Source: Fistulifera solaris (taxonomy: Eukaryota). Taken from it: a stretch of 64,000 bases of DNA. The stretch covers positions 1,612,001 through 1,676,000 of the forward strand of contig AP026123.1 of NCBI GenBank assembly GCA_030295235.1, given 5' to 3'. The notes beneath the pieces were generated by a model. That model made no database searches. It worked only from the letters and a program-made list of their open reading frames with translations, and was not told the origin of the DNA. The position numbers and the translations under genes were made by a program. Shown here piece by piece: positions 1,763 through 57,160 of this stretch; the first letter of the stretch is position 1; the number at the start of each line of letters is the position of its first letter.

Positions 1763-1765
1763 TTG

Positions 1766-2503
1766 TTTTTACTCTAGGCCAAAGTGTAGTCGCCTGTCAA
1801 CTTTTCCACGACTGCATTTCAGTCCTGAACCAAGCTTTATCGAGCCCCGCTGCTACCCACCCTGCGATTGTTTCTTAATGTTGTTGAATAACATTACTTT
1901 TTTAAAATGGGTTTCATTACAGTATTCAACTTTTAGCATCATTCTGCTATACACACAGATTTTTTTACGTCGAAAGCTTGGGGATCGTTGCCTTCCTTCT
2001 TCACTATATACCAGAGTGTATACTACGTTTCTTCATGAGTCGTCGGTTGTGGAGCCTGCTATGACTTCGGATGTCAGAGCGGTTTCTCCCAACTTCTATT
2101 CTTTTATGTTTCACGTCACGCATTCTATCTTCAAGTTAGCGACGTCCTTCCTCTACATGATCCTGCCTATGGTCGTGTCCTGTGGAGGTACAGAAGCTAA
2201 ATCACATCTTCATTCTATACTCAAAAGGCATATTGTTATTCCATCTGCCACACCAGTGCAGCCATCTGTTCGAATCTTTGGCGAAGCTGGTCGTGGTCTC
2301 AAATTCGCTTCCTCTCATGATGCACGCAGCGTAACACTCACAATTAATTGATCGTTTTTGCCTAATTCGTTCAGTTGTCCGTATCTACACGTATCAATAG
2401 ACTTGGCAGCTTTTGGTGCGGTGTTAGATCTATAAAAGTTATCTCTACCGTTACGACGTTAGAACCCTTCGAAATTGACTTCATGACTGCATTTCAGTCA
2501 TGA
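1766..2503 (+). repeat. Array of 3-4 copies of the dispersed bipartite hairpin element (~210-235 bp period)
   Basis: 1766-1828 TTTTTACTCTAGgccAAAGTGT...CCACGACTGCATTTCAGTCCTGA; 1999-2052 degenerate copy; about 2211-2265 very degenerate copy; 2481-2503 perfect TCATGACTG-CATTT-CAGTCATGA. Confidence 0.75.
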
Positions 2504-2747
2504 GTTAAAATTCTGCTGCGCAATAAAAAATGACGCGACGATAACGTACATCTTGTTGCCATGAAACAGGAGTGTAATAACGAATGAGTGCAAGAGTTCA
2601 TAAGCTTCTTTATTCTACGTTAAAGAACGAGTCAAAGATTGAGCAGCATTAAATTTAAATTAGTACAATTTACACTGCAGAATTCCATCATGCTCGTGCT
2701 GACGAGGACGACCAAGCGAGTCGTCAGTACTCAACTGTCATCATGTC

Positions 2748-4818
2748 TCACCAGATGAGGTAGGCAAGAAGCAAACCAACAATCAGACTAATCACAAACA
2801 AGACTCCTAATAGAGGATAGGATGCGCCGCTCGTTGCTTCGCAATTGGGCGTAGTCACCGATGCAAGGCGACTGACAGAAAGGACCGGTCCAGTCGGGAG
2901 GGCATTTGCACTTGCCATCAACACAAGAGCTAGCCCGAATAGGCCCGCGGCCTTCAACAGATTCTTCCCAGTTAATTTCGGTTCCCTGATCAGGACTGGG
3001 ATCGACGGAGAAAAAGTTTCCGCAGTCGAAATTAGTGGAACATTTACCGCCTCCATGTTGCACGACAACCAATGGTTCCTTCTTGATGTACGAATTGAAC
3101 GTGTACTTCTCCCAGTTATCTTGGATGTATTGCTTGGTGGGATATTCCGGCGGGTCACATCCTACAGTGTGCAGCGGGTCCGACTTGTCTTGATAAACGC
3201 GAACGTAATCGATCTCAAATTTTGCAGGTCGACGAGGGTCGATGTCTTTGCAAAGATCTGCCAGCCAGCCTGTACTTTCAGGGCATCGCAAACAGTTCGG
3301 GTTTCCACAGTCGAGACAGGTGAGCTGTCCCTCGGGCGAGCACATGCCGTACGCCGACAAGCAAGGGTCATCTGGTCGACAGCCGTTCCATCCCCACCTA
3401 TGTATCGATACAAAACGGTGCTGTGAGAGGAGTGCGAGAATGAATCAATACTACTGACGTTCGCATTAGTAGTTCGTACCTTGTCGAAACGTCTGTATTC
3501 AAGACTGTTCGAAGTCATTTGAAGCGTGAGAAGGATCAGGCATTACTGTAGCAAGAATGCACGATTTACGAACTTACTTAAGTACATTGCTTCAAAGGGA
3601 ATCACGGGAAAGGCATCTGGCGAACCAGGACGATTCTTGAGCATGTCTGCTGTGATGTCATAGATCAACTTGTCTCCATTGTAAAAACGAACGTAGCCAT
3701 CATCGCTACCTGTTTGCCATTCTGTCCGAATGATATTGTGGTGCTCTTCATAAAAACGCTCGTCGTGGTTCCAATTGGCCGATAAACCATCTTGCCAAAC
3801 TTCGGGAATTTTGTGAATAACCTGGCCGTACCAGTAATTGTTGATCATTCGGGGGTTGGTATCGGTCAAATTGTTGATTCCTTCGCCTGCATAAGCCCGT
3901 CCGCCCATGGGATAGAGGTCAGGGTACCATTCTCCTTTCAACGGCATGTTCGGAGTGAAGGGTCGGATGTAAGAAGCGATTCCGGGCGAAACTTGCAGAG
4001 AAGAGGAAATCAGAGGACGATTGAGGCTATACTCGCGCGTTGTTTTGTCAACAAAAGCCACTTTCTTGTACTCCAGAATAAAATCTCCAGGCTGCGCTTC
4101 GATGATATCGATTTCAGGACTTCCGCGTCCTTTTCCGTCGCGACAATTGGAGATTCGTTGAGCCGCATCCGCTTCCATAGCTTCCGCGGAAGTTCCGCAC
4201 TGATCGTAGCTCCACGGCCAAATTCCTGCTGTACTTTCCATGTAGCTGGGACGAGCAAGATTTCCAAGCATCTAAAAGCACATGCTGTCAGTTACAGTAA
4301 TTTCAAATACAGACATGTGTCTTCTCAGAGCATACGTACCCAGAATGCCGGCCACAATCCACCTCGCAATGCCTTTCCAGGCAATTTGAACGAAATCTCA
4401 ATCATTCCGGACGTGTAAAGCAGAACTTGTTCCAAGTCGTGACCATCCCAGATGAATAAACCCGAGAGAAGGAGTATTCTTTCCCAGTGTTCGGGTCGTA
4501 CTCCTTCCAAGTCGCGTTTTGACGCGCCGTCTCGATGACAAGTTTCCCGTCGCGGGTCTTGACAAAGGAGCTGTTGTAGTACTGTATGGCGGCGTTGGGG
4601 ATACCAGGGCGATCCTCTGCTGTCCAGCGCGTATCGTGACCGTCCACGAATGATCGTTTCTCGTCTTCGAACTCATCGGAAAAGACCAGATGGAGCTGTC
4701 GGTCACCCATGCCTTTCACCGTGTGCGCTTCCACGGGAGTGCTGGCGTCGATCCATCGGCTGGCGCGTGCCGAGCTGACCAGCAATAATAGTATGAGAAC
4801 AACTTTTGAGTTTGTCAT
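2748..4818 (-). CDS. KRE6/SKN1-like GH16 beta-glucan transglycosylase with signal peptide, C-terminal EGF-like Cys cluster and TM anchor (3 exons, frameshifts)
   Basis: Motifs LVFSDEF, GLWPAFW|MLGNLAR, WPWSYDQC, catalytic RGSPEIDIIE, FEIDYVRVYQ and GCDPPEYPT. Introns at about 4273-4339 and 3422-3578. Confidence 0.9.
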
Positions 4819-5046
4819 CGTCGTAAACAATAAAGAGGTTTCACTTTCAACAATCGATGAAAAGAAAATGAGACGATCGCTTTTGGAAACGAACACGTTC
4901 CCGTTTGCGCGCGCGACGGTCGGGACGGTCCGACGTGTTGTTTTCCTAACTACTTGTTCATTTCTTAGAAGAAAAGGACCGTTGGACGTTACTCCAACGT
5001 TATCGTATCCCGTGTGGATGACGCATCACCCGATTTGTGACTGTAT

Positions 5047-5077
5047 TACGTCATGATTGTGACGTAGGAGTGACGTA
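5047..5077. promoter_or_regulatory. Three TGACGT (bZIP/aureochrome-type) boxes in a divergent promoter
   Basis: TACGTCA at 5047-5053, TGACGTA at 5060-5066 and TGACGTA at 5071-5077, between the GH16 start (4818) and the thioredoxin-like start (5230). Confidence 0.4.
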
Positions 5078-7421: not shown

Positions 7422-7673
7422 TGTAACAGCCGTCGCACCTTGATTTGTAGCGTTGATACTATTCATTAAAAATTTGCGAAACGGTTTCAATCTACAACAA
7501 GGATATTCGACGCACCAGTTGAGTCAAATAATAAATGAATTTCCGTAGGAAGTGAACGATTGCATAGCCTTCAAAATGTTAAACCTTGCAATGAACGCAA
7601 TGATCAAACGGGAAAAAGTCGTCGGATGCATTTTTTCTGCAGAAGAATCTTTGTGTTGTGTCACGAGTCGTCG

Positions 7674-7935
7674 TCACGAGCGAAAGCCAGTCATGGCAAC
7701 ATAAAACCTACATTTTGTAATTATAGTGAAATTTTGAGCTACCGATCAAAGCGAATTCTTGACGTAAACAAAGAAGCGGGGAAATGAGAAAGTTGCTGAA
7801 ATACTCCTTATTTCGTGAACAGGAAATACCCCGAGCAAGAGCATTGCGACGTGTATAACATCAGTTTGACAAATACGTTTTCATTTTATTTTATTCATCA
7901 TGGAAAAAACGAAAAACACTTTGGACCATAGTAGT
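7674..7935 (-). repeat. Two copies of the dispersed bipartite hairpin element (~205 bp apart)
   Basis: 7674-7731 TCACGAGCGAAAGCCAGTCATGG...ACATTTTGTAATTATAGTGAAA and 7895-7935 TCATCATGG...AACACTTTGGACCATAGTAGT. Confidence 0.6.
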
Positions 7936-8064
7936 AATTGCTGTCTCTGTTCCGCTTAAGGTTACTAGTAAGGTTGTGGCGTGCACATGAGCGCCGCGTA
8001 TAGCCCTAATACAACAGCTTACGAGGACCCGAGCGTTTTATACCTGGTATATAAGCTGGTAAGT

Positions 8065-29511: not shown

Positions 29512-29731
29512 TTTCGTGCTGACAAAGACAACCGGATGGGGGCACTCTGATACTTTGATGTGCGTATTCTGACGTCGAACTCTATTATGTATAACCAGAT
29601 ATGAGCTTTATGAACATCAATTAGGTCTTATGTTTCTTGTAAAGGGTGAATGGCATATTATTGGGAAAGACGAGATGCTGCGTTTCCGCAAAAACCGTGC
29701 GAGCATTCATGGTGCGAGGACGACTCATGAC

Positions 29732-29783
29732 TCATGACTAAAACCAAGTCATGGTGAAAACGGACAACAGTTTGGACTTATAG
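29732..29783 (-). repeat. Dispersed bipartite hairpin element copy
   Basis: TCATGACTAAAACCAAGTCATGG-tgaaaacgga-CAACAGTTTGGACTTATAG. Confidence 0.7.
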
Positions 29784-29977
29784 CTCGTAAGAGTCTAGGC
29801 AAGAAAGTATAGACCGTATTTTCAACGGATACCGCGAGACATAACTGTTATCGCCAATAATACTTTTTTTCTGCATTTAATATTTTGTTCTTCATCCCTA
29901 TTAATCATCAGTCATCAATTATCAACACTCGGATACTTCCATTCGATTCATTCCTTTTCTAAAGAAAGTGGTTAGCG

Positions 29978-30434: not shown

Positions 30435-30876
30435 GTACATCCGGCATCATGGGATCCCAGAATGAAAGAAATTACGTGAATGTCATATTATGTAAAAGAT
30501 TGGCAACTTGTGGCTGTTTTGCTGTTATGTTTTCCAGCGGAGTGATCTCGGCGAAAAGTTCGAATCGGTAAGAAAGTAAATTATAGTAAATCCGCCTTTA
30601 CCAAGGAGACGCATCAATACACTTATGGAAATATTACTTGAAATACGCTTCATTGCATTGCAACCTTGATCTAGTGCTCCCATAAAGCGATAAAGATCCA
30701 ATTCTAAAAAAAATGGAAAGATCGCAATTTGGATAATTGACCCTCATTCAGTCTGATGTGTGCTCAGTCAAGCTGCCTTTATTAGAGGTGTGCATACCTT
30801 CGTCATTATTCTTTCTAAAGATAAACGTTAATTAGTATACCTAGACCATTGCGTCGGATAATGTCGTATTCCGTAG

Positions 30877-31124
30877 ATACAATAGACTCAAAGTGTATAC
30901 AACATTTTTCACGACTGCACATTCAGTCATGAATACCTAAAGCTCCGAGCCAGACTGTTACCGAAACATCTTTCGTTCTGCACACTTGTTAATCTGAATT
31001 TGTCATCTTGTCATTTACGCTTCGATTTCTACGTCCATTTAGTCTTGCCGACGCTGGTATTCAGATTTTGCTATAGACCCAAAGTTTTCCCTCAACATTA
31101 CCACGACTGTATTTTCAGTCATGA
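30877..31124 (+). repeat. Two copies of the dispersed bipartite hairpin element (192 bp apart)
   Basis: ACAATAGactcAAAGTGT...TCACGACTG-CACATT-CAGTCATGA (ends 30932) and TTTTGCTATAGacccAAAGT...CCACGACTG-TATTTT-CAGTCATGA (31066-31124). Confidence 0.85.
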
Positions 31125-31279
31125 GTCATCCCTCTGAGGCAAATTGATAGATGCGAAATAATGTAAACTCCGTTTTTTCTGCTACATTAGCTAGAGACAT
31201 GAATGCTTCACCACGCCGCAACAAATTTCAGTTTTATCGGGATACGCAATGCACACCACGAATAATCTGATGCTCATCG

Positions 31280-33287: not shown

Positions 33288-33601
33288 CTCCTCTACATCT
33301 ATAGAAACAAATAATACATTTGAATCGAGAATTAAAACATTAATAGCGGAAGAGTCAAAGTTTTGATGACTTTTTAGTTTTTTCGGGAATCAAACAGGCA
33401 AACTTCATGGCGTTGTGCTGGCTATTTTGGTTGCAATGACCTACGGCTTGAAAGTAAGAGCTACTCCACTAGAATGACTCACTTTATGCTCAAACACTAG
33501 ATCTTGACGAAGTTTTACATTATTACACCGGACTACAAACCATCGGCGACTACATCTACCCTTAAAAAGGTTCCGTATCGATGAAATTTGAAGCATTGCC
33601 A

Positions 33602-33853
33602 TCACGACTGGATCCAGTCACGGTCAAAGTACGGCAAACAATTTGATGCGGTAACGAATAGGTCCGCAAATGAAAGCACAAAGTGTACAAGCATTTGCAA
33701 TGACATTGATGACATCGTTAGTAACAGCTAACTTCATTCAAAAAATGTGGCATCGTGTTTATCTGCGTCGAAACGTTCCTAGGCGTCGACTGAGATTTTA
33801 CTATAGCCTTAGAGTGTTGGTTGTACGGATTCACGACTGCTTCTCAATCATGG
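33602..33853. repeat. Two oppositely oriented copies of the dispersed bipartite hairpin element
   Basis: 33602-33655 TCACGACTG-GATC-CAGTCACGG...AAACAATTTG (minus) and 33796-33853 TTTTACTATAGccttAGAGTGTTGG...TCACGACTGCTTCTCAATCATGG (plus). Confidence 0.75.
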
Positions 33854-34272
33854 CTAGCAATGCCATAAAGTGGCAACAAATTATACTCTAGTTCATGTAC
33901 AAAGTTATAGGTATCAGAAAACATGCAATGGATCCTTTGAAATGCACAATCGCGAAGATTGGCGTGGGAAATCTCCTGAAGTGTGCCTTAAACCATATTG
34001 TCGGATAAAACTTTGAACTCAAACCACGTGCCGGTACGACATCATTACCAGTATGAGACCGACGCCCGTTTTTAGTGTGCGACCATGACAAATGCGATCA
34101 CGATGATGCTTGTGAAGCAGAAATCGTGAACGGAGGAAAGCATTTTATTTCAAGGCCTTCGAATATATTGAGCGTCAATTGCCATTGCCACTGTATTAGA
34201 GACGCTGTCCCTACTTTTTCGTTTTTGAAAAGCGTTGCCTAACGATAATTGAACATCTTCGAGCCGTTCAAC

Positions 34273-35349: not shown

Positions 35350-35565
35350 AGCTTTATTTTTTTTAAATGACTATAGTCGGGTTGTCAGAAAACTTGACTC
35401 GCTGGATCGGTGCGAGCGCGAATGCAGCAAGTCACAACACGGGTGGGTAGGGGAAGAGACGGTAGGCTTAACACCCTACTACAAGTAAAGCTTTATTTTT
35501 TTTAAATGACTATAATCGGGTTATCAGAAAACTTGACGCGCTGGATCGGTGCGAGCGCGAATGCA
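35290..35565 (+). repeat. 138-bp direct tandem duplication of a gene's last codons and 3' UTR
   Basis: CAAGTCACAACACGGG...GCGAGCGCGAATGCA at 35290-35426 and 35428-35565, with about 4-5 differences. Confidence 0.95.
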
Positions 35566-35724
35566 TCTGCGATTGAGCATGGGGCAACGTGATGGCCTTG
35601 TCATCAACGTATGTCGCTTAAAAAAAAGCATAATCAAGGTCGCTAGAAACTAATGACTCGGAGTATTGTAGAAATGACCTGAATACTAGAATTAGTCTAG
35701 TGACTACCACGCACTGACAAAGGA

Positions 35725-36960: not shown

Positions 36961-37593
36961 AATATGAATGATAATTGAGAGATTATCGAACTAATGTCAA
37001 TGTTTTATAGTCTATTAATTTGTATTATTTCTCATCTTTTCTCTGCTGTTTCGTCTCATCGTGCATCGTCTAAGCGGCGGAAACCGGTGGCAAAAACACG
37101 TCTCGTCTGTCCTACGCTCACATTTATTCAGTAGTGGTGCGATAGCCTAATTGTAGATTGAATTGAATGCGGTACTAACGACTATAGAAATATTCAATGC
37201 TGGTTTGAAGCACTATTTAGGCTATATTTTTCAAATCAAGCGCGGGCAGGCCGTACGTCCATTAAGTGTAATTTTTGCCTCCATCGGGGTGACATTTTCA
37301 CGTGTCGCGGCCGACGTGGTTGACGCGCGCAGAGCCTTCGCGGAAGCGCCCTCGGCTTTCCCTCCACCAAACTGGCAATGCTTTGCGCATTTGCGACACG
37401 CCATCACCATTCATACCGCAAACAGATCATCCTTTCACTTTAATGTGGCCCAGATTCCTGTGGTGACTGCCAGCATAATATCGTTTCGTTGTCTTACACC
37501 AGGTACCCCGATTTGCTAACCGGGTGACGATCTTCTGGCTCAGTGAGGCTTTAATTCTCACAATCCTGCTCCGCTCATTTCTTTCACACAACC

Positions 37594-39948: not shown

Positions 39949-41224
39949 CCCGTGAATAGCAACAACAAACTAAGATAGTCTTACTGTTATTCTTGATAAG
40001 GCAAGCACGGATTTTATGCATGATGTCGTAGTATTATCGCCTTCCAAACTGTAGGCCCTCAGTGAATCATTTCTCACGTTCATGCTGGGCCTTTCTAACA
40101 AAGCATGAGTGCACGTAGCGCTCGCGTTTTGAAATTAATAATATAAGTTGCCAGACTTAACTACTCGTAGATTGAATCTTTCTTTTAGGATGTATTACCA
40201 GTAGTTCGTTCAGAGCTTCGGATAGGCTGCCTTCGTGGTCTTCAGATTTACAACAAAGAACGTTCGCGAGCAGACAGCACGGTGGGCAGAAGACATAGCA
40301 ACTGGTGTCCTCAATTGTAAAACTGATGGAGAATTTCTCGGTCCTGAAATTCGATCGGATATTTCGGTTAAGCGTCTCACAATCCGGGCTGTATCCGAAT
40401 GAAAATATGCCTACGGTAAGCTGGGTAGCACTCACTTGAATAATAAAATATCGTGAAAGATCGACTTTGCGAATTCGGCGTCAAAAGATTTTCAATGGTG
40501 TCTTTTCTTTAAATACGTCGCAATTTCAGCTGTTGTCCAGTGGATTGGCATCTACGAAAGATCAAAGCATGAGGCCACATCAGCCAGTACGCAAACCCAT
40601 CCTCTTATATGTAGGATAAAACCCTTACTGGCACGTATATCCAATCGCCACTCTCGTCGAAGTCTCTTCATTTTTATCGCCATCATGAAAACAAAAAAAA
40701 ATTGCGAAGGAGATGGTCAATTCATTTCAAAATGTCGATCAATGGCATCGAAATGATGTAAATAGAGTTTGGGCCCAAAAATCCTGTGCTATGCCCTTGT
40801 AAAAATTGGCCGAAGAACACGGTTTGCCCATATACATTTAAGTAGTACAAGAAAAGAGCGTATTAGCTAGATTGTATTAATTAAATCAGAACGGTACTTG
40901 ATGGTTTGCCTACGTCGCAGCGTGTCTGATAAATATCGCAGAGGATGCACGGACAGACTGGACCCTCTTTGATACTCGTGACTCAGACATAGAAAGGCTG
41001 CACACTGGTAGAGATTGTAGACGGAGCAATCGCGGGATACACCTTTTGAAAAGCGACGATGATGAATGCGAATTGCGACGATGATGCATGAGATATTCTC
41101 TGACTCCTTGTCATTCGATTGAAAGAATACGAAAGCAGGTGTATTGTGATCGTTGTTAAGTGGTCAAAAATCATCATGATTCTTCTGGAGAAACTGTTTT
41201 GAAGCGTAACGAGTGCAGCGAAAC

Positions 41225-43080
41225 ATGGGCTTTGAATTGCAGCACGTCCTGTCTGACGCACACCATTATGGCGTCTTTGAATGCGTCATTTGTCAACAGT
41301 TAATCGATTTGGATGCATTAGTGACAACGCCGTGCTCACACGCGTTTTGTGATATTTGTTTGCGTCAGTGGCTCAACAAGAGCACGGAATGTCCTACATG
41401 TCATCAAAACTTACTGTTTTCGAACAACAATCAACACAAGTGTATAACGATAGGCGGTGTGTCCGTGAATGTCGAACCGCTGTCGTTAACCCAGCCGCTG
41501 GCTCATCGGTCACTGAAGCGAGTGCAAGTATCATGCCCTTTCTCGCAGATTGGATGCGACTGGAAAGGTGACTACGGTGATTTAGACTCGCACTTGTCGA
41601 AAGCAGCGCATCACTCGAATGCAACAGACGACTCAACTCAACGCACGAAACAAACAGCGGCCATGTACAAAGAAGAAGGCAACAATAAATTCGCATCGAG
41701 ACACTTTCGTCAGGCGCAGGATATGTACGCAAAAGCCATTAGTATGTTGGAAGTTCTTGGACAAAAAGATGAAGAAGTGTATCTGTTGTTGGCTTCACTA
41801 TATGCGAATCGGTCTGCGACGCACTTGATTCTGCACGAGTTTTCGGCTGCGGTCTATGATGCTACGTGCGCTACTGCAACCGACCCATTTTACGTCAAAG
41901 CGTATTCCAGAAAAGCGAAAGCTTTGGTGCAACTTGGATCTTTGGAGGAAGCATTTCGTGTGCTACAACAGGCCACTAGCGTTGTCAAGGGAGGGCAATA
42001 TGACAAGCTGCTCGCGAAAGAACTTGAGCAAGTCACTGTGCTAAACCAGATTTTTATTGAGGGGAGTGCTCAGTTGGGTAACAACGAATTTGCGGCAGCA
42101 AAGTCTTCGTTTAGCTTGCTACTGTCCATTTCACAAGACTGGCTATCTCAAACACTGGAAGCCCCGAATGTGTTGCTAGGAGTGGCAAAGGCGGATCTTG
42201 GCCTGGGATTGACTGACGCAACACTGCGGCTCACGCTTCAGGTTCTTAAGAAGCATCCACAGTCAACAGACGCGTATGCTCTTCGAGGACAGTGTTATCT
42301 GCTAATGACAGAATACGATGCAAGTCTCTCTTTGTTGAAAGAAGCCTTACGACGTGATCCGGATTCAATTCTTTTGCGCAAAGCTTTGAAAGAGACCATA
42401 TCGATTCAAAGCTTAGCAAATCAAATCAAAGAAGCCCTCTTTATCGCCGTTTTGAAGAAGCAAATCAGAAAGCGGCAGAAGCGATCCAGGCATGTGTGTT
42501 ATTACCCCCTAAATCCCAGTTGCACGCATGGCTGTACACGCAACGTGCTACGGCCTCTTTACGCTTGAAGGAGCACCAAAATGCATTGAAAGATTGTGCC
42601 ACGGTCCTGTACTATCTCGAAGATTATGTGGAAGCATGGCTCGTTCGATTTCAAGCGCTCCACGCTTTAGAGCGTCACGAAGAAGCATTGGAGCTGTCGA
42701 CGGATCTTTTGCAAAGGTGGGGCGCAAACGATTCTAGGATCCGCAAAGCGTACGAGGCGGCTAATTTTGAAGTCCGTAAAAGAAAGCGACCTGACTTTTA
42801 CGCTATGCTAGGAGTAACTTCACTGGCATCGGAGCGCGAAATTAAAAAGGCGTATCGACAAAAGGCTATGGAACTGCATCCGGATCGAATGGTGGGTCAA
42901 AGCGAAGACGTGCAAAGGAGGGGTCAACGCGACTTTCAATTACTCGGTGAAGGGCTGGAAATTTTGACCGATGATTTCAAAAGACGATTGTATGACGACG
43001 GTTATGACACGGAAGCGATTAAAGAACGCGTCGAAGCCGCCAAGAGAGCTGCGCACGGTCGTCAAAGTCATTATCATTAA
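41225..43080 (+). CDS. RING finger + TRAF-type Zn finger + TPR repeats + C-terminal J-domain (DNAJC7-like fusion); frameshift near 42440
   Basis: CVIC...PCSHAFCDIC..W...CPTC; CPFSQIGCDWKG..L..H; TPRs (YKEEGNNKF, LYANRSA); DFYAMLGV..EIKKAYRQKAMELHPDR. Confidence 0.88.
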
Positions 43081-43176
43081 ACCACTCCGAAATAATAATA
43101 ATTTTCACACAGGCACAGTTCATACATACGCGTGTTCAACATAAATCTTTTTACAGATAATCTTTTTCGGTTGTAG

Positions 43177-43965
43177 CTATTGTCGTTTGAGGTCGTCCGA
43201 AGACTTTCTCCGGAAGAATATTGAGTCGATCCACATCTTTAAGCCCATGAAAGCGACATCACAACCAGCAAACATAAGCGCAGGAGCACCCAACAGATCA
43301 TAAAATACGCTTTCTCGCATAATTTGGCACGAGTAGCGATCGAAAACGACACCCGCCACGGGTAACAAACCTCCTAAAACAACGGTCGCCAAGCATGCGG
43401 GTCGCAATTCCTTGAGCATTGCAGCAAAGCATACCTGACCGGCAAAGGCCAACGGTACAAGATAAAAAAGTTCTAGTCCGATGGTGCTCGTGTGTCTGCA
43501 GAAAATGACTGTTGCCAGAAGAGCCGAAGTAAGACATATTGCGAATGTGACGGCTTTCCAGAATCGAGCGGAATCAATGAGTCGATCCAGACATGCTCCC
43601 ACAATGGCACAGGAGGACAGTCCCGTAAAGAGACAGTCCAGTGACCAAAGCAATGGTTGTTCTTCTACTTCTGTTCTACCAGGGGTAATGGTGACAAGAC
43701 AGTGCAAGAAAAGAGCGAAGAAATTCATGAGACCAAAACAGCCAAACGCTGCTCTCCACCACCGTAACGTTTTGTACTGGTAAGCCCCTTGGGCTCCGAT
43801 CCATATTCCCCCAAGCGCAAATACCGCCAGAGATGGATGTCGGACGCTTCCTGGAACGAACTCAGGGCATAGTTGTGCGATGTCGTCGGGGAAAAGAAGT
43901 TGAAGTACTCGGGGAAATGTGCGGGTGATTTCAGGGAAATAACCAGCGACAAATGGTCGACTCAT
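43177..43965 (-). CDS. Hypothetical multi-pass membrane protein
   Basis: 262-aa ORF with about 7 hydrophobic segments. Confidence 0.7.
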   Translation of the reverse strand: MSRPFVAGYFPEITRTFPRVLQLLFPDDIAQLCPEFVPGSVRHPSLAVFALGGIWIGAQGAYQYKTLRWWRAAFGCFGLMNFFALFLHCLVTITPGRTEVEEQPLLWSLDCLFTGLSSCAIVGACLDRLIDSARFWKAVTFAICLTSALLATVIFCRHTSTIGLELFYLVPLAFAGQVCFAAMLKELRPACLATVVLGGLLPVAGVVFDRYSCQIMRESVFYDLLGAPALMFAGCDVAFMGLKMWIDSIFFRRKSSDDLKRQ

Positions 43966-44450
43966 TGATTTGAAATTTAATTAACAATCAATGTGAACTG
44001 TGCAATGTTTATTAGAAATATAAAGTAATGCGAAAACGTGAAGAGATGTAATGGAAAACGATGCTTGCCACTTGCATCATCGTTGTTGTGGTGTCAATGA
44101 AAAGTGTCATCGCATATACCTGGTAGAACCCTTTATGTACGTGTTAAGTATCTTATGAAAAAATGTCTTAGTGGCTTCATATTCTGATGGAACGTCCAAC
44201 CTAAACTGTCGGACCGCGACCGTGATTTGTTCTTCCTTACTATTCCTTCATCCCTACCGTACCCCTATACCCTGGTATTCAATCTTCAAACTCATTTGCC
44301 TTGTCGCAAGAGCTTGTCGGCTGAAATTTGTTGCATGGTTAGTATAATTTGTACTGTGTATCCGCTTCAGTGAATACATTCAGATGATAGGCTCTAATGA
44401 GACGCAAAAGACAACAATTGTGTTGCATGCGGTTTAAGACTACTGTAGAC

Positions 44451-44510
44451 TCATGACTGAAATGCAGTCGTGTCGGCTCCTCTAAACCAACAGTTTGGAG
44501 CAGAGTAGAA
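44451..44510 (-). repeat. Dispersed bipartite hairpin element copy
   Basis: TCATGACTG-AAATG-CAGTCGTG...CCAACAGTTTGGAGCAGAGTAGAA. Confidence 0.8.
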
Positions 44511-44663
44511 AGTAAACCTTAGAACACGAAGGTCAGCGGCTCGCAAAATCATCGACCCCCATCAAACCAAACATTTTCAAACCTATTATTGAACCTTGTT
44601 TTTGAGCTACCAGGTAGTTATTAGTATTTTATTCCATTATTAGTTGAAATATCCGCCTGAAAA

Positions 44664-46334
44664 ATGAGCGAAACGGACATGAAAGAGCGTTTCTTTGCCT
44701 ACGTTGACGAGCGGCAACGGCGCTACATCGATCAGCTGGGAGAAGCTGTCGCGTAAGTCGAACAATACAACGGAAAATTACGGGCGCGCTCTTTCCCTCA
44801 CTTTCCTCTCGTTCTCAGTATTCCTTCTGTTTCATCGCAACTGGATACGCATTTGCCGGATATTCAAAAATGATGGAATATGCCGCAAATTTCATTCAGC
44901 GTCTCGGAGGACAGTGGGAACTGCGCGACAATCCCGATGGCACTTCGGAACGTCCTTTGCCGCCTCTCTTGTTGGGACATTTTCCGGTCGATCCCCGCAA
45001 AAAAAACGGTATGTGTGTACGGGCACTTGGATGTTCAGCCGGCGCATATTGACGATGGTTGGGATAGTGAACCCTTTGTACTCACCGAACGAGACGGGAA
45101 ACTGTTCGGAAGAGGCAGTACGGATGATAAGGGTCCGGCTTTGTCGTGGCTATGGGTTATCGAAGCCCATAAGGAATTGGGAATTGATTTACCCGTCAAT
45201 ATCAAGATATTGTACGAAGGCATGGAAGAGTACGGTAGTGAAGGTTTGTTTACTTTTATTCGCGACGAGCATGACAAATTCTTGGGGGATGTCGACTTTT
45301 TCTGCATCTCGGACAATTACTGGATTGGGAAGTCGAAACCATGTTTGACGTACGGATTGCGAGGTCTGGCGTACTTTGAATTGATCGTACAAGGCTGTGA
45401 GCAAGATCTGCATTCAGGAAACATGGGTGGAGCAGTGCATGAAGCGATGACGGACCTCATTCGTCTCATGGGAACGTTGGTGGACAGTCAGGGAAGAATC
45501 TTGATAGAGGGCGTCATGGATGATGTGAAACCGGTCACTCCTGAGGAAGAAGCTTTTTATGATCCTATTGAGTTTGATGTCGAATCTTTCAAAGAAGAGG
45601 CTAAAGTGAAGTCAATCAGCAACAAACTTCTGCATGGCAACAAAAAGATCTTCTCATGGCACGGTGGAGATTCCCGACTCTCTCTTTACACGGCATCGAG
45701 GGTGCTTTTTCGGGATCAGGCGCAAAGACAGTTATTCCAGCAAAGGTAAAAGGAAAGTTTTCGATGAGACTTGTCCCCGATCAGGATCCGGTTCGAATTG
45801 AACAAGTAGTCAGGGCACACATAGCTCGCGAGTTTGAAAAGGTATGTATGCTTATTTGTGTCTGCGGGTTGTTTGCCGGTCGCTCAGTATCTCATGCCTA
45901 TTAACTTTCAGTTGAATTCGCCCAATAAAGTGGAATTGAACATGCTGCATGGAGCCAAATCCTGGCTTTCGTCACCCGATCACCCTAATTACGCAGCGGC
46001 AGCAGCTGCAATTCAAACCGTTTTTCAAACAACACCCGATTATACACGAGAAGGTGGATCAATCCCTATCACCACCGCATTTGAAGAGGCGACCGGGATG
46101 AACGCTTTGTTACTGCCGATCGGAGCGTGCGACGATATGGCGCACTCTCAAAACGAAAAGTACAACATCACAAATCTTATGAATGGCATCAAAGTACTTG
46201 GCATGTATTTGCACGAGCTGGGTAAAATTGGGGGACCAAAGCCATCTTCGTGTCGGTGCATTCCATTGACCGAGGAAGAGCTCATGGTACCTGGAGCTTT
46301 CATGAAGGGATTTCGTTGCAAATGCGAAATGTAA
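44664..46334 (+). CDS. CNDP2: Cytosolic non-specific dipeptidase / Cys-Gly metallodipeptidase (M20A), 3 exons, frameshifts
   Basis: [45 protein letters not shown] and AHSQNEK. Introns at about 44753-44818 and 45842-45911. Confidence 0.95.
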
Positions 46335-47542: not shown

Positions 47543-49044
47543 TCGTTTTTGTTTGGTATGAAAAATTCACTTTCACATTGCAATGAAGCAAACATTATCA
47601 TCAACACACGTCGGGTCGCTTCGCGCAATATTTCGCGCACAGAAAAACCGTGTCCCGAGTAAGCTGAACATACAGTCTGCTACTGTGTGGCTTTTACTTC
47701 TGTGAGTCAAGTGTCAAGTGTCACAAAGTGTGTACAGTCTGTCCGTGCGTCCTCTGCGACATATCCCAACAACACTGCGACATTGGCCAATATTCGTGTA
47801 CCGCTCCGAACTACCATCTACATTTTAGGCTTAGACATTAGTTTTACTACTTTCAGGACGTAGTGTGTCTAAACCGTGTTCTTTGGCCAGCACAGGATTT
47901 TTCTGCTCATTACTCCTATTATTTTACCTTCAACTTCATTTTTTTGTGCTATTGAGAGTGCCCTTGTGAAAGGGAAAAAAAAACACTTCTCTTCTCCAAT
48001 AGTCTTGCATTCATGATAGAGAGAGTTACGCAGAAACTTCTCCGGAAGTGCGCATGGAAAATCGTTTTAAAAAGGGATTATCTCCATTATACTCCAGGAT
48101 GGCTTTTCTCGATGCTCGATGATCTTCAACGCAGCCATGCTGGATCTTGAGGTTGGTCGTGGCGGAACGTATTGCGATTGTAGAGCTGCAGATATGGTGC
48201 ATGGAGGAAATAATGGATATGATACCTTGACTCGTGAACTCGAGTTATCGCGAATCTGGATCGCCATACACAGCAAACCCACTCGAGAGCAGTACAAAAA
48301 GCGACGTCTCTTAAGCAATTTTCTCCAAAAATGGGCCTACTTGAGTTAATGAACGCCAAAATCGCACAGTCGAAGCCTCACACTACCTTATTATCCAAGC
48401 AAACGCTACCCAACTGACCAGAGTTAATTGCCTCGTCCGGATAAAACGCAAATTAGGAAATACTCAATCGAATATACGAGCAGACTTTGGGGTATAACGA
48501 AGCATTTCATGCAATCTACAGTCCAAGTCGGAGAAGTTTCGCTTTGCTACACACTCAAGTGCTTCATTCGCGACCTTTTTCCAGGGCAATATACCTATTC
48601 TAAGGTGAATGCTACGAAAGAAGATGTCCTTTCTCTATCTATTGGAATAAAATCGAGCTGGTTCGAAGAGAAATATCCATCGAGGAAGCAGTTGTGTCGG
48701 GAATATTGAAAAGCAAAATGATGGCCTGGTCGAATGTCAATTCTGGTCTGTGTCACTCAATAAACACTTATTGAATAATAGAGAATGAAATACAGAACGA
48801 ACACTAGATTGGAGGCGGCGCTATCACCAATATTACACTGTCATCAAAGACGACCAAAGTTAAGGAAGCGACAAGAATGCGGTCACAGAAAAGGGATACA
48901 CGATTTTGCAAATAGGGCTAGTTTAGCTATCGACTACTTGCTTGTCTCGTCTAGAAAATAAACAGAGATGTGATAATAAAATCACGTTCGACTGACGTAT
49001 ATAGTCTTGTAGTCAAAGCTCGATCTCGTAATTCGTGCCGCTGC

Positions 49045-51234: not shown

Positions 51235-52798
51235 TTACAAGACTTGAGCTACGTCCATACTAGCATATATTACAAGCTCCGGAGGGTACACGTTCGAAGA
51301 AAAAGATCCCTTCAGTCGTTTCTCCCATTCATCGTACACCGGATAACGCTGAAAACTTTGCACGCTTCGGTACTCGAAAAAGACATCATCCTTGGAAAGT
51401 ATGGCTTCTCGTCGAACCGCCTCAGTACCACCATCAAACTGGAAGCCCTTTGTGTATTCACATCCCTCCATGGCTCCCCAATACATGCGATTGGACGAGT
51501 TGTTCAAGCCATCTTGCAAAAAGATCACGCCCATATTGGTCAACGCCAAAGCATCTTCTGTGACGGTCATTCCAGCACTGGACACGAGCGATATTTGAGC
51601 CTGATATGCGGGAATAGGAACAAAGGTGAGACCTTTGTCGGAGGAACTAGGTATACGAGTTGTGCGACCCGTCACAATATCAGCTAGATAAGTATTCTTC
51701 GCCGATCTTCTGTCGTGGTCAAAGCAGATTTCGCACGTAAAACTGATACCATCCACCATGAGCCAATCGTACTCAATCATTGTATACCTGTTGACGAAAG
51801 GAAGTCACTTATTAGAACATAATCACAGCCTTGAGCACATGTCCACTCAGTGCGTACCCAATGTTATTCAACTCGTTTTTATACTTGTTCCACAGATCAT
51901 TGTCATATCGCTTTATAGAGAAATCGAAGGGATTGAAGACTGTTGTATCATGGTCGGGAAGCGCTTCATCAATCAACTCCCTCACTGCTGTTTCATTGAG
52001 AAAACGTCGAGGTGTCAAAAAGTCGCTGCTGCTCACGTATCGTTTTGGAACTAAAAATCGCTTTCCGGAATGATCCATTTTGTCAGGATCGTAACCCTTG
52101 TAGAGAGGTGCAAAATTGTAAAATAAAAAGTCGTATGGATCTTCCGTTGGCAGTGCTTCGGATGCAACCACCGTGCCCATGACAAACAGCCAGTTCTCGA
52201 ACTTTTGTTGCGCTACTATTTCTTCCAGGCCTTTCAAGATCTCACAGATTGCTCCGCACTCATTGAAGCTGTCGTCATTTTCATCGTACGCAAGGTGTAC
52301 GCCCCATTGACTCCTCTCCAAAAGAATTCGGGCGCAATGAATATTTTGAGTGTCATAGGATCTGGATCGGCGAGTTCATGTGCACGAGCAACGGCCTCGC
52401 GCATAAGTTCGAGTCTTTGTCGTACATCTTCCAAGGGATCGTCGTGTCCGACATAACATTGAAGTATTGGTCCATCGTCGCCTCCATCGTCCATGTGACC
52501 GTACGAGTTACGACCGATGCACTCCGGATTCTTCCGTCCATCGGGTAGCTTCGCGGGCGCACCTCCCGTATAAATTTGAAACCCAACGCCTTGCACTTTC
52601 GAATACTTGGAATGTGGATGATGGGCGTTGTGCAGATCGATTTCGAGACGATACGAGCGCAGCCCCATAGCAAGAACACCCACCACGAGTCCTACAATTC
52701 CCCATATCACATTTGACACTTGGATCTGATTGCTTTTTTTGTGAAGGATGACGACCCGAACCTCGTAATAGCGGGCTATTTTCCGCAGATAGCGCCAT
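51235..52798 (-). CDS. Membrane-anchored nitrilase/CN-hydrolase-fold protein, paralog 1 (frameshifts, 1 intron)
   Basis: N-terminal TM VIWGIVGLVVGVLAM; KIFIAPEFFWRG, LVPKRY and CEICFDH. Confidence 0.7.
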
Positions 52799-53201: not shown

Positions 53202-54827
53202 TTAGAAGCCAGCATGATTCCTTTGATTCGACTTGACTTGAGCGATTTCGACGGGCTCGTATACAACAAGTTGCGGTTCATACAATGCGGCAGAAAACAC
53301 GCCGTCTAACTTCTTCTTCCAGTGATCCCATATTGAATACTTTTCAAAGTTATGTAAAGACTTGAACTCAAATAAGGCGTCCATGTACGAGACGACTGCT
53401 TCTCGCTGAACCGCTTGCGTACCACCCGTGAAAATGTAACCATCCTGACGGAAGCCATCGCATTCTGCCACATTTCCAAAAGTCACATCGTTGGCGGCAT
53501 TGCTCTGACCGTCTTGCAGAAAAATGACACCCCCATTCGTCAAAACGAGTGAGTCCTCGGTCACCGTCATGCCGGCGCTAGAAACAAGAGAAATTTGTGC
53601 CTGAAATTCCGGAATATTCACATAGGCGAAACCGTTCTCATCCGAGTAGCTTGGAATCAACGTACTGCGACCCGAAACCATGTCCGCCATGTACGTATTT
53701 TTAGCTCGTCGCTGATCATGGTCAAAGCAAATTTCGCACGTCATGGAAATTCCGTCAATCAAAAACCAGTTATTATAAATCAAGTGATAGCTGGGAAAAG
53801 TTGAAAGAGACGTTAGTGACGATTTCCGATCTTATTGTTCGAAGATCTCACAAACGACAACGACAGCCACGTACCCCCGATCGTGAAGATCATCTTTGTA
53901 CAAATCCCAAGCATCTACGTCGTACTTGTTTTGACCAAACGGTATGAACAAAGTGTTGTCCGTTTCTGGCAAGTCTTCCGCGAGTAATTCCAAAATGGCG
54001 GACTGGTTCGACATGAATCGGCGGGGTAACAAAAAGTCCTGCCCGCTCACAATACGCTTCGGAACAAGGTAACGCTTTCCGGTGTGATCCTGTTTCGCTG
54101 GATCGTAACCTTTATATAGTAGAGCGAAGTTGTAGAAAAGATAATTGTACGGGTCTTCTTCCGGTAAGACCTGCGAGGCAATGACGGTGCCCATCAGAAA
54201 GAGCCAATCTTGGTATTTCGGGTCGGCCACAAATTCTTCCATGGCCAGCATCAAATCGCAAATGGGCCCGCAATGCGTATAGTCCTCTTCATCTTGCATA
54301 ATATACGCACCATCAATACCCCGCCAGTAGAATTCGGGTGCAATGAATACTTTCAAAATGCTGGAATCAGGATCGGCCACATCGTACGCTTTCTCAATGG
54401 CGTCTTTCATTAATTGAATTCGTACACGAACATCATCAATAGGATCTTCGAGACCCAGATAGCACTGATATTGCAAACCATTTTCGTCGTAAAATTCACC
54501 GTACGAATCGAGGCCGATGCATTCGGGGTTCTGCGGGCCGGTATTGTTGCGATCCAAAAATGCGGGTGCTCCGCCCGTGTAGATTTGAAAGCCGATTCCT
54601 TGGACTTTGGAGTATTTGGAGGTATAAAGACGCGAATGACGTTGCGAAGGGAACCATGTCGACCCGTGAGTAGACATGGCCAGAACGCCGACGACAATGC
54701 CGATGAGGATGCCGCCGACAATTCCGTAAACGCTCATCGTTTCTGTGCAATAGGTCTTGCGGCTGCTCACAAATTCCGGGGCGCCTAAGAGCGACGTATG
54801 CTCGCCTTGTTTCTGATAGCTTTCCAT
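53202..54827 (-). CDS. Membrane-anchored nitrilase/CN-hydrolase-fold protein, paralog 2 (1 intron)
   Basis: TM VYGIVGGILIGIVVGVLAM; KVFIAPEFYWRG, LVPKRI and CEICFDH. Colinear with paralog 1, with the same intron position. Confidence 0.75.
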
Positions 54828-55154: not shown

Positions 55155-56333
55155 ATGACGACTCCCCTCTCGAAATCATACTTCCCACTCCTCATTACAG
55201 CATTCGCTTCCGGAACGGCGCTGGGTCTGTTTGTCGCCAAGCGTATGATGAAACTATCACCAGAACAACACCTGTGGAGCATCGTGATGCATTCCTTCAC
55301 GGGCGCTTTAATACATGCAGGCGATTCTCTGGAATTGTACGATCACTTGGAAGCCATGAAACGACCGGTCACTGCTCAAGAACTTGCCGAAGCGACAGGG
55401 TGGTCGGAACGCTGGTTGGAGGAGTTTTTGGCTCAAGCCGCCGGAGCCGGTGTTTGCGCATTTCGTGACGGCAAATTTTCCATGACACCGGGATATGCTC
55501 CCTTATTGTGCAACCCGGCAACAAATCCGCGCAGTTTGGCGGGATTGTTTGAGATGTTACTCCCACTGCTCAAGCGGGCGGAGTCTGTGGTCGTACAGGC
55601 AATTCAATCCGGAAAAGGAGTGGATTATGACTTTGGCAATGCACAAATCATTCGTGGCATTGATCGCAAAAACTACAATTGGTTTCGGGATTATCTGATA
55701 AAGGATGTTTTGGAAGATGTAGTTGTTCCAGCCACCGGCGAATCACTGGTGGAAATGCTAAAACGGGGTGTTCACGTGGCCGATATCGGTTGTGGCTGCG
55801 GGGCGTCATCCATCATTATGGCCAAGGCGTTTCCGAAATCGATCATTTACGCGTATGAAGCATCCGCACTTTCATTGCAAGTTCTTCAAGAACGGATTCA
55901 AGCCGAAAACATTCCAAATATTGTCGTGTGCAACGTTGCGGAACGGGGCGTGGGAGACGGACCAGACGGTGATGATGCAGACTTCTCATTTGTCTTTTCC
56001 CACGACCTGCTGCACGATATGACGGATCCGCAAAGCTTGATTCGTGATGTCAAGACAAAGTTGAGTGACAGAGGATGCTGGATTGTTGTCGATATCAAAT
56101 GTCAAAACACGTTGACGGCCAATATTCAATCGCCCGCGTCCGCCTTGTTTTACGGCTTTTCATGCCTTCTATGTCTTGCCTGTTCCACATCCGAAGATCA
56201 TGGGGCCGGGTTAGGAACGTGCGGTTTGCCGGCATCCAAATGTCAAGATTTTATGAAAGAGGCCGGCTTTACCCATTTTGAAGAACGAGGAGTGGCTTCG
56301 AACCCGGTTCAGGCTCGTTACATTGTAGCTTAG
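55155..56333 (+). CDS. Class I SAM-dependent methyltransferase with N-terminal winged-helix domain (Rv2258c-like)
   Basis: TAQELAEATGWSERWLEEFL, VADIGCGCGAS, HDLLHDMTDP and GAGLGT. Confidence 0.9.
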   Translation: MTTPLSKSYFPLLITAFASGTALGLFVAKRMMKLSPEQHLWSIVMHSFTGALIHAGDSLELYDHLEAMKRPVTAQELAEATGWSERWLEEFLAQAAGAGVCAFRDGKFSMTPGYAPLLCNPATNPRSLAGLFEMLLPLLKRAESVVVQAIQSGKGVDYDFGNAQIIRGIDRKNYNWFRDYLIKDVLEDVVVPATGESLVEMLKRGVHVADIGCGCGASSIIMAKAFPKSIIYAYEASALSLQVLQERIQAENIPNIVVCNVAERGVGDGPDGDDADFSFVFSHDLLHDMTDPQSLIRDVKTKLSDRGCWIVVDIKCQNTLTANIQSPASALFYGFSCLLCLACSTSEDHGAGLGTCGLPASKCQDFMKEAGFTHFEERGVASNPVQARYIVA

Positions 56334-56479
56334 ATCTGTATATACCAGACATAGAATTTCGACGTCGTTGATTCGCTTTCGATTTTCGATGCTTGAACAA
56401 ATGGTAATGGAGCTAAGAAGTAACTGGAATAAAAGGCATCAGCTACGAACTTGCTTGTTAAGTCGTCAGGCTTCATGCT

Positions 56480-57160
56480 AACGATTTTGACGTGCATGTT
56501 GGTAAAGAATTGATCAATACCGTTGTAATTGCCATAGTCACAGACTAAGTTGGCTAACGATAACCAAATCTGGCCATTCCTAATGAGGAATACACGTCTC
56601 TTAGCAATTACGTAGTATAAGTTGCGAAAAATCGAAGGGATTCACGACTGAAACTCAGTCGTGGCGAAAAACTTTGAACTATAGTAAAATCGAGTTTGCG
56701 CATCGCGAGATCGATTATGACGTGCAGTTTAATAAAAACCATTTAACACCGTTCTTTTGCCCTAGTCAATCTAATTTGGCTCACGACAACCAAGTGTGAC
56801 CTTCTGAACGAGGGAAACACGTCGCTTTGATTACATAAGTTGCGAAAAACCGACAGGATTCATGACTGAAAATCAGTCGTGGCGACAACGATCAACACTT
56901 TGAACCATAGTAAAAATCAAATTGCACATTGCGAACTCGATTTTGGCATGCTTGTTGATAAAAATAAATCAATGTCGTTACTATTTGCCTTTGCCAAAGA
57001 TCAAGTCGGACACGGATAAGTAGGCTTGATCGTTCTTAATGAGAAATCGACATCGCATTAGCGCAAAGAGCTGTTATTGCTCTTTGCATTTGAGTGGTGA
57101 CTTGACTAAAATGCAGTCGTGGACGCTGTAAACCAACACTGTGGGTCTATACAAAATATT
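56480..57160 (-). repeat. Diverged tandem array (~3 units, ~218-242 bp), each unit carrying the bipartite hairpin element
   Basis: Hairpins start at 56642, 56860 and 57101, each followed by AC(A)CTTTG..CTATAG-like tails. Flanks also align, e.g. TAAGTTGCGAAAAA at 56618 and 56836. Confidence 0.9.

Follow-up and report, generated by a model that had tools for sequence, protein, structure and literature searches.

A many-copy 70-base non-coding module with a TATA-like box and a short palindrome in Fistulifera solaris

A 70-base module between tightly packed genes

We analysed a 64,000-nucleotide stretch of Fistulifera solaris DNA (assembly GCA_030295235.1, contig AP026123.1, positions 1,612,001 to 1,676,000 of the forward strand; hereafter the window), in which a reading made from the sequence alone had proposed a bipartite hairpin element of about 15 intergenic copies. 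The window is nuclear DNA of a compact eukaryote, with 46% G+C, short GT..AG introns and about 32 tightly packed genes of stramenopile or diatom flavour, which include KRE6/SKN1 glucan synthesis, bestrophin, DUF7733 and many housekeeping families. The element lies between these genes. We conclude that it is real, and that it is a many-copy, 70-base, non-coding module in which a TATA-like box and a second box are combined with a short palindrome. Its anatomy, block-wise conservation, spacing and non-coding location are directly established, and copies occur in the window at a density of about one per 5 kb.

The motif recurred far beyond the expectation from shuffled sequence, which bears out the element noticed in the sequence-only reading. 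The exact hairpin CACGACTG-N3-8-CAGTCATGA was found four times in the window versus 0.00 expected, and the hairpin core GACTG-N3-8-CAGTC eight times versus 0.28 expected. All eight core matches fell at copies of the element, and thus there are no solo hairpins elsewhere in the window. TTTTACTATAG, allowing at most one mismatch, occurred five times versus 0.55 expected, and box 2 alone (CAACACTTTG, at most one mismatch) was barely enriched (12 versus 6.05 expected). We also built an nhmmer profile from the eight strong copies. In leave-one-out searches, from which the tandem sibling was removed as well, each of the eight was regained (E 2e-13 to 4e-4). The eight-copy profile gave independent matches at 57103-57158 (E 2e-9) and 7674-7734 (E 5e-7), and it matched two half copies, the hairpin half at 2476-2505 and the box half at 7898-7939. 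A covariance model searched with filters off, for which the 10 full copies are the training set, gave independent matches at 7892-7942 (E 5e-4, boxes only) and 2474-2503 (E 1e-3, hairpin only), reached E 0.018 at 1993-2041 and only E 1.2 at 33602-33646, and returned nothing near position 2211. By these two models, the 15 positions originally listed resolve into 10 full copies, 3 partial copies and 1 doubtful copy (33602), and the site near 2211 was undetected.

Alignment of the copies gave the consensus GATTTT-ACTATAG-N3-CAAAGTGTTG-(spacer of about 12 nt)-CCACGACTG-NNTTT-CAGTCATGA, in which CTATAG is itself palindromic. The T-run/CTATAG box, the CAAAGTG box, both arms and the TTT of the loop carried 1-2 bits per column, whereas the flanks and the inner spacer were close to random (about 0-0.5 bits per column). 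By hand count, divergence from the consensus affected about 9% of positions in the arms and about 60% in the inner spacer, and therefore uniform neutral decay of one ancestral sequence is excluded. The arms had been described as conserved around a variable loop. The first half of this description holds, but the loop, 4 to 6 nt long, is not free: its 3' side is TTT in most copies. The gap of 10 to 20 nt between boxes and hairpin, as originally drawn, conceals an overall length that hardly varies: counted from the first T of CTATAG, the A of CCA[C/T]G lies 29-31 bp downstream in 7 of the 10 full copies. The distance is 35 bp in one of the remaining full copies, 21 bp in one that has an 8-nt deletion, and about 33 bp by hand count in the copy at 44451, where the script missed the box.

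No two copies outside the tandem array described below were closely similar, with core identities of 0.65-0.71 between pairs. The inner spacers carry weak subgroup signatures, CAAC(A/T)TT in the copies at 1806, 30909 and 31101 and GTTGGTT in those at 33831, 44451 and 57103. In a self-BLAST comparison, similarity between loci ended at about 70 bp, the exception being the array at 56.5-57.2 kb. A 70-bp composite cannot recur by chance, and we therefore conclude that the family spread by copying. The boxes and arms were kept intact either by a host-level function or by a requirement for re-copying.

Several of the copies share loci. Locus 1 begins with a full copy at 1761..1832 on the plus strand (leave-one-out E 1.9e-10; cmsearch 58 bits), followed on the same strand by a weak partial copy at 1993..2041, which has boxes without a good hairpin (nhmmer E 0.13), and by a hairpin-only copy at 2474..2505, a perfect TCATGACTG-CATTT-CAGTCATGA with degenerate boxes (nhmmer E 4.5e-6; cmsearch E 1.2e-3). 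On the minus strand are a full copy at 7671..7740 with a decayed 3' arm, CGCTCGTGA (independent nhmmer match, E 5.5e-7), and, 221 bp from it, a partial copy at 7892..7945 with only box 1 and box 2 (nhmmer E 8e-5; cmsearch E 5e-4). A full minus-strand copy at 29727..29796 (leave-one-out E 6.3e-6) occupies a 372-bp spacer of two divergent genes. Two full plus-strand copies come next, at 30863..30936 (leave-one-out E 4.5e-6), with the ATG of an amino-acid transporter (31626) 690 bp downstream, and at 31055..31128 (leave-one-out E 1.1e-10), which is 191 bp downstream of the former in the same orientation and separated from it by an unalignable spacer (z -0.31). The doubtful copy at 33602..33647, minus strand, has a good palindrome with a core hairpin match and weak boxes (nhmmer E 0.13), and near it is a full plus-strand copy at 33787..33856 (leave-one-out E 3.9e-4), 417 bp upstream of the ATG of the DUF7733 gene (34273). 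A full minus-strand copy at 44447..44520 (leave-one-out E 2.3e-10) lies in the divergent spacer of an open reading frame (43180-43980, minus) and an M20 peptidase gene (plus).

The remaining copies belong to a true tandem duplication on the minus strand at 56482..57230, which has about 3.5 units of 218-240 bp with one element each (self-BLAST, 73% identity over 265 bp). Unit 1 carries a full copy with the 8-nt deletion, located in box 2 (56637..56701; leave-one-out E 6.1e-9, and unit alignment), unit 2 the full copy closest to the consensus (56855..56927; leave-one-out E 2.3e-13, 75.6 bits), and unit 3 a full copy with a decayed 3' arm (57097..57167; independent nhmmer match, E 2.3e-9).

Contigs with other flanks stacked on the hairpins in two DNA samples, at depths of 79 and 145 versus about 20-29, with 5-6 loose-ended contigs at 44449 and 44472. 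The family therefore reaches beyond the window. The composite pattern, which has five matches in the 64-kb window, had one match in JGI metagenome contigs, inside a high-GC bacterial-type open reading frame, none in IMG/VR, and one in 596 Gb of prokaryote genomes (GTDB), on a contig of a bacterial metagenome-assembled genome with 63% GC that the element profile did not recognise. We regard both of these matches as chance. Rfam 15 gave no match at any copy, whether at gathering scores or at E values up to 5, and so the impression that this is not a described family agrees with Rfam, as far as RNA families go. In the excerpts of full-text literature that our searches returned, no diatom element of this form is described, and the Fistulifera assembly preprint, as excerpted there, concerns centromere motifs and unrelated repeats.

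Non-coding placement and nucleosome-sized spacing

All 14 full, partial or doubtful copies lay in non-coding spacers. Open frames of at least 60 amino acids over copies had coding scores of -0.05 to +0.08, compared with 0.08-0.22 for Pfam-supported genes, in agreement with the earlier statement that none lies in a coding sequence. One frame of 103 amino acids at 56333-56641 scored 0.138 and overlaps a copy by 5 nt. We rejected it as a small minus-strand gene below the array, because its first methionine is at about residue 49 and it crosses repeat-unit DNA. On our gene map, spacers make up about 29% of the window, and the chance that eight independent loci would all fall in spacers is about 5e-5.

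Neighbouring copies were 191, 218, 221, 232 and 240 bp apart, which bears out the spacing of about 190-240 bp noted at first sight. The three distances outside the array (191, 221 and 232 bp) separate copies in the same orientation. The spacers between neighbours measure 118-175 bp, or about one nucleosome. When spacers were compared at three loci outside the array, they resembled shuffled DNA (z -0.85 to -0.02), just as the first reading had judged them not alignable outside the 56.5-kb locus; as a positive control, spacers within that array gave z 31 and z 4. The locus 1 hairpins at 1806 and 2481 are separated by 675 bp, or 3 x 225, and the weak 1993 copy and the undetected site near 2211 fit this grid. 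Regular spacing with unalignable spacers suggests either that the core was retained in situ once duplication had occurred or that phasing is constrained.

One rival explanation is a protein docking site without promoter activity, for instance an insulator or boundary, a site of replication-origin type or some other site that organises chromatin, which would be bound by a factor reading the palindrome and the boxes and be phased with nucleosomes. Besides the 191-240 bp spacing and the roughly nucleosome-sized spacers, placement that is independent of orientation, arms that are conserved as sequence without covariation (see below) and an apparent preference for longer spacers, with 6 of the 12 spacers above 700 bp carrying a copy, fit this explanation. 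However, a rigid dimer on duplex DNA would not easily accommodate a loop that varies from 4 to 6 nt, we know of no candidate factor, the case from spacing amounts to five distances, and the geometry of the TATA-like box and initiator described below would be a coincidence. We consider a pure docking site improbable. The broader suggestion of a nucleosome-phased protein site, made from the sequence at the outset, is compatible with arms that do not covary and with the spacing, and it comes near to the reading that we prefer.

The same pattern of a conserved repeat, a variable spacer and regular spacing at four loci, together with the imperfect palindromes, could be read as recombination sites of attC-like or tyrosine-recombinase type that bound cassettes of about 220 bp, and this had also been proposed. 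We found no integron-like cassette array: the 118-175 bp spacers contain no frame of coding character and the window no recombinase gene. Furthermore, most loci have only one or two sites, no rearrangement was seen between two DNA samples, and we know of no attC-like or tyrosine-recombinase cassette system in eukaryotic nuclei. We therefore set recombination cassettes aside as very improbable.

Hairpin pairing, mobility tests and other repeats

We compared pairing of the hairpin on the two strands. Stem cells were paired in 81.5% of cases on the strand that runs from the boxes to the hairpin and in 88.9% on the opposite strand, which pairs better because two recurrent C.A mismatches become G.T or G.U there. 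On the reverse strand the full stem appeared in the best fold of 8 of 10 copies, and folding relative to shuffled sequence gave a mean z of -1.34, versus -0.86 on the other strand (10 copies each). Stem covariation was absent, with 472-500 of 500 shuffles reaching the observed values, and a single pair was altered on both sides on the element strand and none on the reverse strand. We therefore conclude that the arms are conserved as sequence and not as pairing. Among the 10 copies folded, no conserved structure recurred beyond the 9-bp hairpin. One asymmetric stem position (position 4) lies in a CpG (CACG/CATG), and its asymmetry may simply be CpG decay.

These results bear on whether the copies are small RNA genes or carry an RNA motif, in which the reverse strand would fold into the 9-bp hairpin, two of its pairs being G.U, with the boxes CAACACUUUG and CUAUAGUAAAAUC left single-stranded after it, and in which about 220 bp would be one transcription unit. 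The better pairing of the reverse strand, its somewhat better folding than shuffled sequence, placement independent of protein-gene orientation and arrays of regular unit length are in favour of such an RNA. Nevertheless, no pair is changed on both sides on that strand, structure is limited to a short hairpin with no Rfam match up to E 5, and the G.U asymmetry at stem position 4 is explicable by CpG decay. Moreover, no promoter is conserved outside the element, and the T-runs do not form a consistent terminator, the first run of at least four T being about 33 to about 165 nt downstream of the element by eye, and 12 or more copies in 64 kb with diverged bodies are unlike known small-RNA families. 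The structured-RNA proposal found little support in these comparisons, and we judge small RNA genes to be quite improbable. Contigs of two small RNA-like runs (X3 and X7) left 30.6-31.1, 33.8-34.3 and 43.9-44.5 kb uncovered, which is uninformative either way.

Several specific identities were tried and rejected. For tRNA-type A/B boxes or the head of a short interspersed element, the N3 that separates the boxes is variable, and searches of ARAGORN type and against Rfam were empty. A spliced-leader gene is contradicted by a GT after the hairpin in only 4 of 12 copies, and an RNA polymerase III unit ending at the T-run by inconsistent distances. A bZIP/AP-1 site (TGAGTCA) stands beside only 2-3 copies.

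Spread by copying raises the possibility of a selfish, non-autonomous hairpin element, either mobile as a very short unit or forming the conserved terminus of heterogeneous elements, and copied in trans by a rolling-circle/HUH mechanism (Helitron-, Helentron- or IS200/REP-like). An enzyme encoded elsewhere would read the hairpin and the two boxes on single-stranded DNA, and these would be kept since re-copying needs them. A 70-bp composite spreads only by copying, and the occurrence of copies in both orientations and in spacers only, the partial or decaying copies (2474-2505, 7892-7945 and 57097-57167) and the subgroup signatures of the inner spacer, which suggest lineages of source copies, all point the same way. 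HUH enzymes read one strand only, and the hairpin is strand-asymmetric (88.9% versus 81.5% paired, with a full stem in 8 of 10 reverse-strand folds). The stacking of contigs with other flanks in two DNA samples is likewise consistent with mobility, as is the copy that adjoins a 52-bp tandem array, since some HINEs carry internal tandem repeats, according to the excerpted text of PMC4067079.

We searched 1.5 kb on either side of 10 copies for inverted copies of box 1 or box 2 (at least 10 of 11 matches) and found none at any of the 10; the search turned up only the palindromes of other copies and one local repeat. No flanking direct repeats or target duplications were seen in the copy alignments, and none of the 93 open frames of at least 120 amino acids in the window encodes a Rep, helicase-Rep, transposase or recombinase, so that, within the window, the check for Rep/helicase, HUH or recombinase frames suggested by the sequence-only reading came back empty. 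All six copies between 29 and 45 kb were bridged by contigs in samples X1 and X2, X2 being a second, environmental sample whose contigs differ little from the window at the bridged copies. Among the 15 listed of 18 contig joints none excises an element, and no empty site was seen. Because all six copies are bridged in the second sample, we conclude that these six are fixed rather than recently mobile. Contigs of both DNA samples across 29000-45000 fall into two likeness classes, at least 99% and 90-95%, of which the latter aligns within genes but does not do so across spacers. A second, diverged copy of the genome, either a haplotype or a homoeologue, is suggested by this pattern.

We then considered the described families one by one. 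A canonical Helitron has a 3' CTRR end about 11 bp after a palindrome of 16-20 nt, as given in the excerpts of PMC4067079. Here a 9+9-nt palindrome is present, but no CTRR end follows about 11 bp past it. Read hairpin first, conservation instead continues for 35-45 nt to CTATAGTAAAATC (CAACACTTTG-N3-CTATAG-TAAAATC), where the last four bases before the T-run are ATAG or AGAG rather than CTRR and the TAAAATC past them is also conserved. Neither a Helitron 5' TC end nor a shared body was found, as there is no inter-locus similarity outside the module of about 70 bp, and hence no 5' end or internal region can be defined. The excerpts of the same source give HINE/DINE-1 elements subterminal inverted repeats of 12-15 bp at both ends, a palindrome of 5-10 bp located 8-35 bp from the 3' terminus, and a T-rich insertion site (PMC4067079). 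Paired subterminal inverted repeats were missing from all 10 copies within 1.5 kb on either side; a palindrome with 9-bp arms is present, conservation ends about 3-5 nt after it, and the T-run is part of the conserved module. The features of miniature inverted-repeat transposable elements were lacking as well, given that neither of the ends GATTTTACTATAG and CAGTCATGA is an inverted repeat of the other and that no flanking direct repeats were seen.

The element nonetheless resembles Helitrons and HINE/DINE-1 in a short palindrome near one end, a conserved subterminal sequence before it, no target duplications seen in the copy alignments, a T-rich flank, tandem repeats and geneless non-autonomous copies, to judge from the excerpted description (PMC4067079). 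It differs in having no 5' inverted-repeat partner, no CTRR end and nothing in common past 70 bp, with no Rep/helicase in the window and no empty sites seen. The proposal that the copies are Helitron or Helentron termini is thus not borne out, and a looser hairpin element mobilised in trans is possible. A selfish element would explain why the family spread, why some copies decay and why the two strands are asymmetric. It lacked defining features of each specific family with which we compared it, and the absence of any close pair of copies outside the tandem array also speaks against it. We regard the selfish element as the main rival of the reading that we prefer, and as only slightly less probable.

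A bacterial analogy for such an element exists in REP/BIME sequences (REPINs), which are mobilised by RAYT HUH transposases and often act at RNA 3' ends. Like these, the element has short imperfect palindromes with a conserved adjacent tag, is strictly extragenic, occurs in both orientations, is often clustered and numerous, and would be recognised as sequence plus hairpin. Unlike them, it resides in a eukaryotic nuclear genome, has a bipartite build in which 30-45 bp separate the boxes from the hairpin, and has no known RAYT-like gene, and a role at RNA 3' ends is unsupported.

Other repeats and genes of the window were recorded alongside. At 1133-1758, directly adjoining the copy at 1761-1832, a 52-bp unit is repeated about 11 times in tandem with 77-86% matches. 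Two small palindromes, CACAGAAAATCTGTG and TTCCAGAAATTCTGGAA, are present in every unit, and the latter contains two TTCnnGAA half-site pairs that resemble a heat-shock element. The array, which gives rise to three spurious open frames of more than 200 amino acids, is upstream of a DnaJ/Hsp40 gene (ATG 1001, minus) by about 130-750 bp. Its hairpin has a suggestive likeness to that of the element, but we rejected kinship as there was no profile match. A second dispersed non-coding repeat occurs at 40780-40985 (+) and 47713-47900 (-), with 73% identity over 97 bp; each copy is upstream of and aimed at a gene (41210, plus; 47566, minus), and read contigs stack on the two copies in two DNA samples at depths of 158 and 113 versus about 15-20, with many loose ends.

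Farther along, a unit of 139 bp is present twice at 35290-35565, with 96% identity, in the spacer of two convergent genes. The adjacent minus-strand genes at 51509-52611 and 53509-54620 are paralogues of an unassigned family with 64-69% DNA identity. A tRNA gene at 61062-61132 (-) has a partial duplicate at 60945-60996 (52 bp, 90% identical), and a perfect 32-bp x2 tandem repeat lies between the two at 60991-61056. Just past a WD40 gene, 63770-63864 (+) is a candidate U14/SNORD14-like box C/D small nucleolar RNA, which scored 48 bits (E 5e-7), under the Rfam gathering score of 64.

A tentative promoter-type reading of the module

Our preferred reading, which we hold tentatively, is that the element is an old, copied, protein-recognised promoter-type module of about 70 bp that would seed initiation or open chromatin in gene-flanking spacers. 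The module is laid out like a core promoter: the T-run and the TATA-like palindromic hexamer CTATAG come first, then the second box CAAAGTGTTG, and about 30 bp past the TATA-like box stands the palindrome with 9-bp arms, which opens with YCAY, the putative counterpart of the stramenopile and mammalian initiator core. Under this model, each intact copy would recruit TBP/TFIID-type factors and a palindrome-binding factor. Recruitment would open a nucleosome-free site in the gene-flanking spacer, and transcription would start at or near the palindrome. The outcome could be short unannotated transcripts, or an open site that aids the promoters of neighbouring genes from either orientation. Rows of copies would be old tandem duplications with one nucleosome-sized stretch (118-175 bp) between adjacent sites. 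Protein binding, initiation and the effect on chromatin are predictions from the sequence.

The geometry of the module is in agreement with this prediction. According to the excerpts available, a TATA box lies about 30 nt upstream of the transcription start and the oomycete initiator is YCAYTYY (PMC3599244), and the human initiator is BBCA+1BW (PMC5287114). In 7 of the 10 full copies, CTATAG lies 29-31 bp upstream of YCAY, and the loop with the 3' arm reads TTCAGT, which fits BBCA+1BW. A further observation comes from the minus-strand copy at 29727-29796, whose minus-strand neighbour is the open reading frame at 28531-29607. On its other side, at 29979-30435 (+), is a small Cys-rich gene (MCCCGGD...; ATG 29979) with a 79-bp GT..AG intron at 30095-30173; the gene is absent from the list of long open reading frames and is backed by a spliced RNA-like contig that differs from the window by about 9%. 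This contig (29926-30475) reaches at least about 92 nt upstream of 29926, which brings it within about 40-50 nt of the palindromic CTATAG of that copy, read in reverse. We favour the promoter-type reading because the distance from CTATAG to YCAY equals that from a TATA box to the start, because the arms read as sequence rather than as pairing, because the copies are fixed in the second sample, and because the RNA-like contig comes so near to a CTATAG.

Several points weigh against this reading. The module does not behave as the core promoter of a neighbouring gene, which would be both oriented toward that gene and close to it. In the four informative same-direction spacers, the element points toward the downstream gene in two (30863/31055 toward the amino-acid transporter; 33787 toward DUF7733) and away from it in two (1761; the array at 56.6-57.2 kb), and the distance to the next ATG is 216-690 bp, which is long for a core promoter in a compact genome. 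All eight loci are in spacers with a gene 5' end, but about 87% of the spacer DNA in the window has one, and this figure is therefore uninformative. CTATAG is a weak, partial TATA box, and the +3 position of YCAY is G rather than W. The start sites at the copies are predictions. The fixed distance of 30 bp could also follow from the descent of all copies from one 70-bp unit, and the spread of a 70-bp composite by copying is itself transposon-like behaviour. Finally, in the array at 56482-57230 flank identity is 0.74 between units 1 and 2 and 0.58 between units 3 and 2, and core identity is not significantly different from it (0.77 versus 0.74; 0.70 versus 0.58). In-situ selection on the core is thus not demonstrated in this array, the only one that can be dated.

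The promoter-type module can be compared with known promoter arrangements. It resembles TATA and initiator promoters in having a TATA-like box about 30 bp upstream of a YCAY or CA, as far as the excerpts of PMC3599244 describe them. It differs from such promoters in being a fixed 70-bp unit copied to many loci, in having an extra box between the TATA-like box and the start and a palindrome across the putative start, and in being neither consistently oriented toward nor close to protein-coding genes. Duplicated spacer promoters are exemplified by the ribosomal DNA spacer, with its promoter-bearing repeats of about 240 bp. The element is similar to them in that its copies are in 5'-flanking spacers and form short same-orientation arrays with a unit of about 200-240 bp. 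The piRNA (21U-RNA) units of C. elegans have an upstream motif called Ruby, and they likewise are many autonomous mini-units with a conserved upstream bipartite motif and a variable downstream part, intergenic and in both orientations. They belong to another lineage and have no sequence relation to the element, so this is an analogy only. It is unlikely, in our estimation, that the element represents a new class of autonomous mini transcription units, with thousands of portable promoters in nucleosome-phased rows firing short variable non-coding RNAs from the spacers that flank genes, on the pattern of nematode piRNA units, or the first eukaryotic nuclear counterpart of REP, copied by a domesticated HUH enzyme.

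Taken together, the element would be a kind of short dispersed palindromic or promoter-like repeat, its function being inferred from one window. Under either reading, with about one copy per 5 kb, the element should be masked or modelled when this genome is annotated. With at least 10 copies in which the boxes are retained and the surroundings randomised, it also offers a clean test case. Should it be a hairpin element that is mobilised in trans and has neither inverted repeats nor target duplications, the range of REP-like or rolling-circle-like mini-elements would come to include a stramenopile nucleus. If it proves instead to be a core promoter in portable form or a site that opens chromatin, it would join the small set of cis-elements defined in diatom-type genomes, where little is known of promoter grammar, and it would be directly useful for expression constructs.

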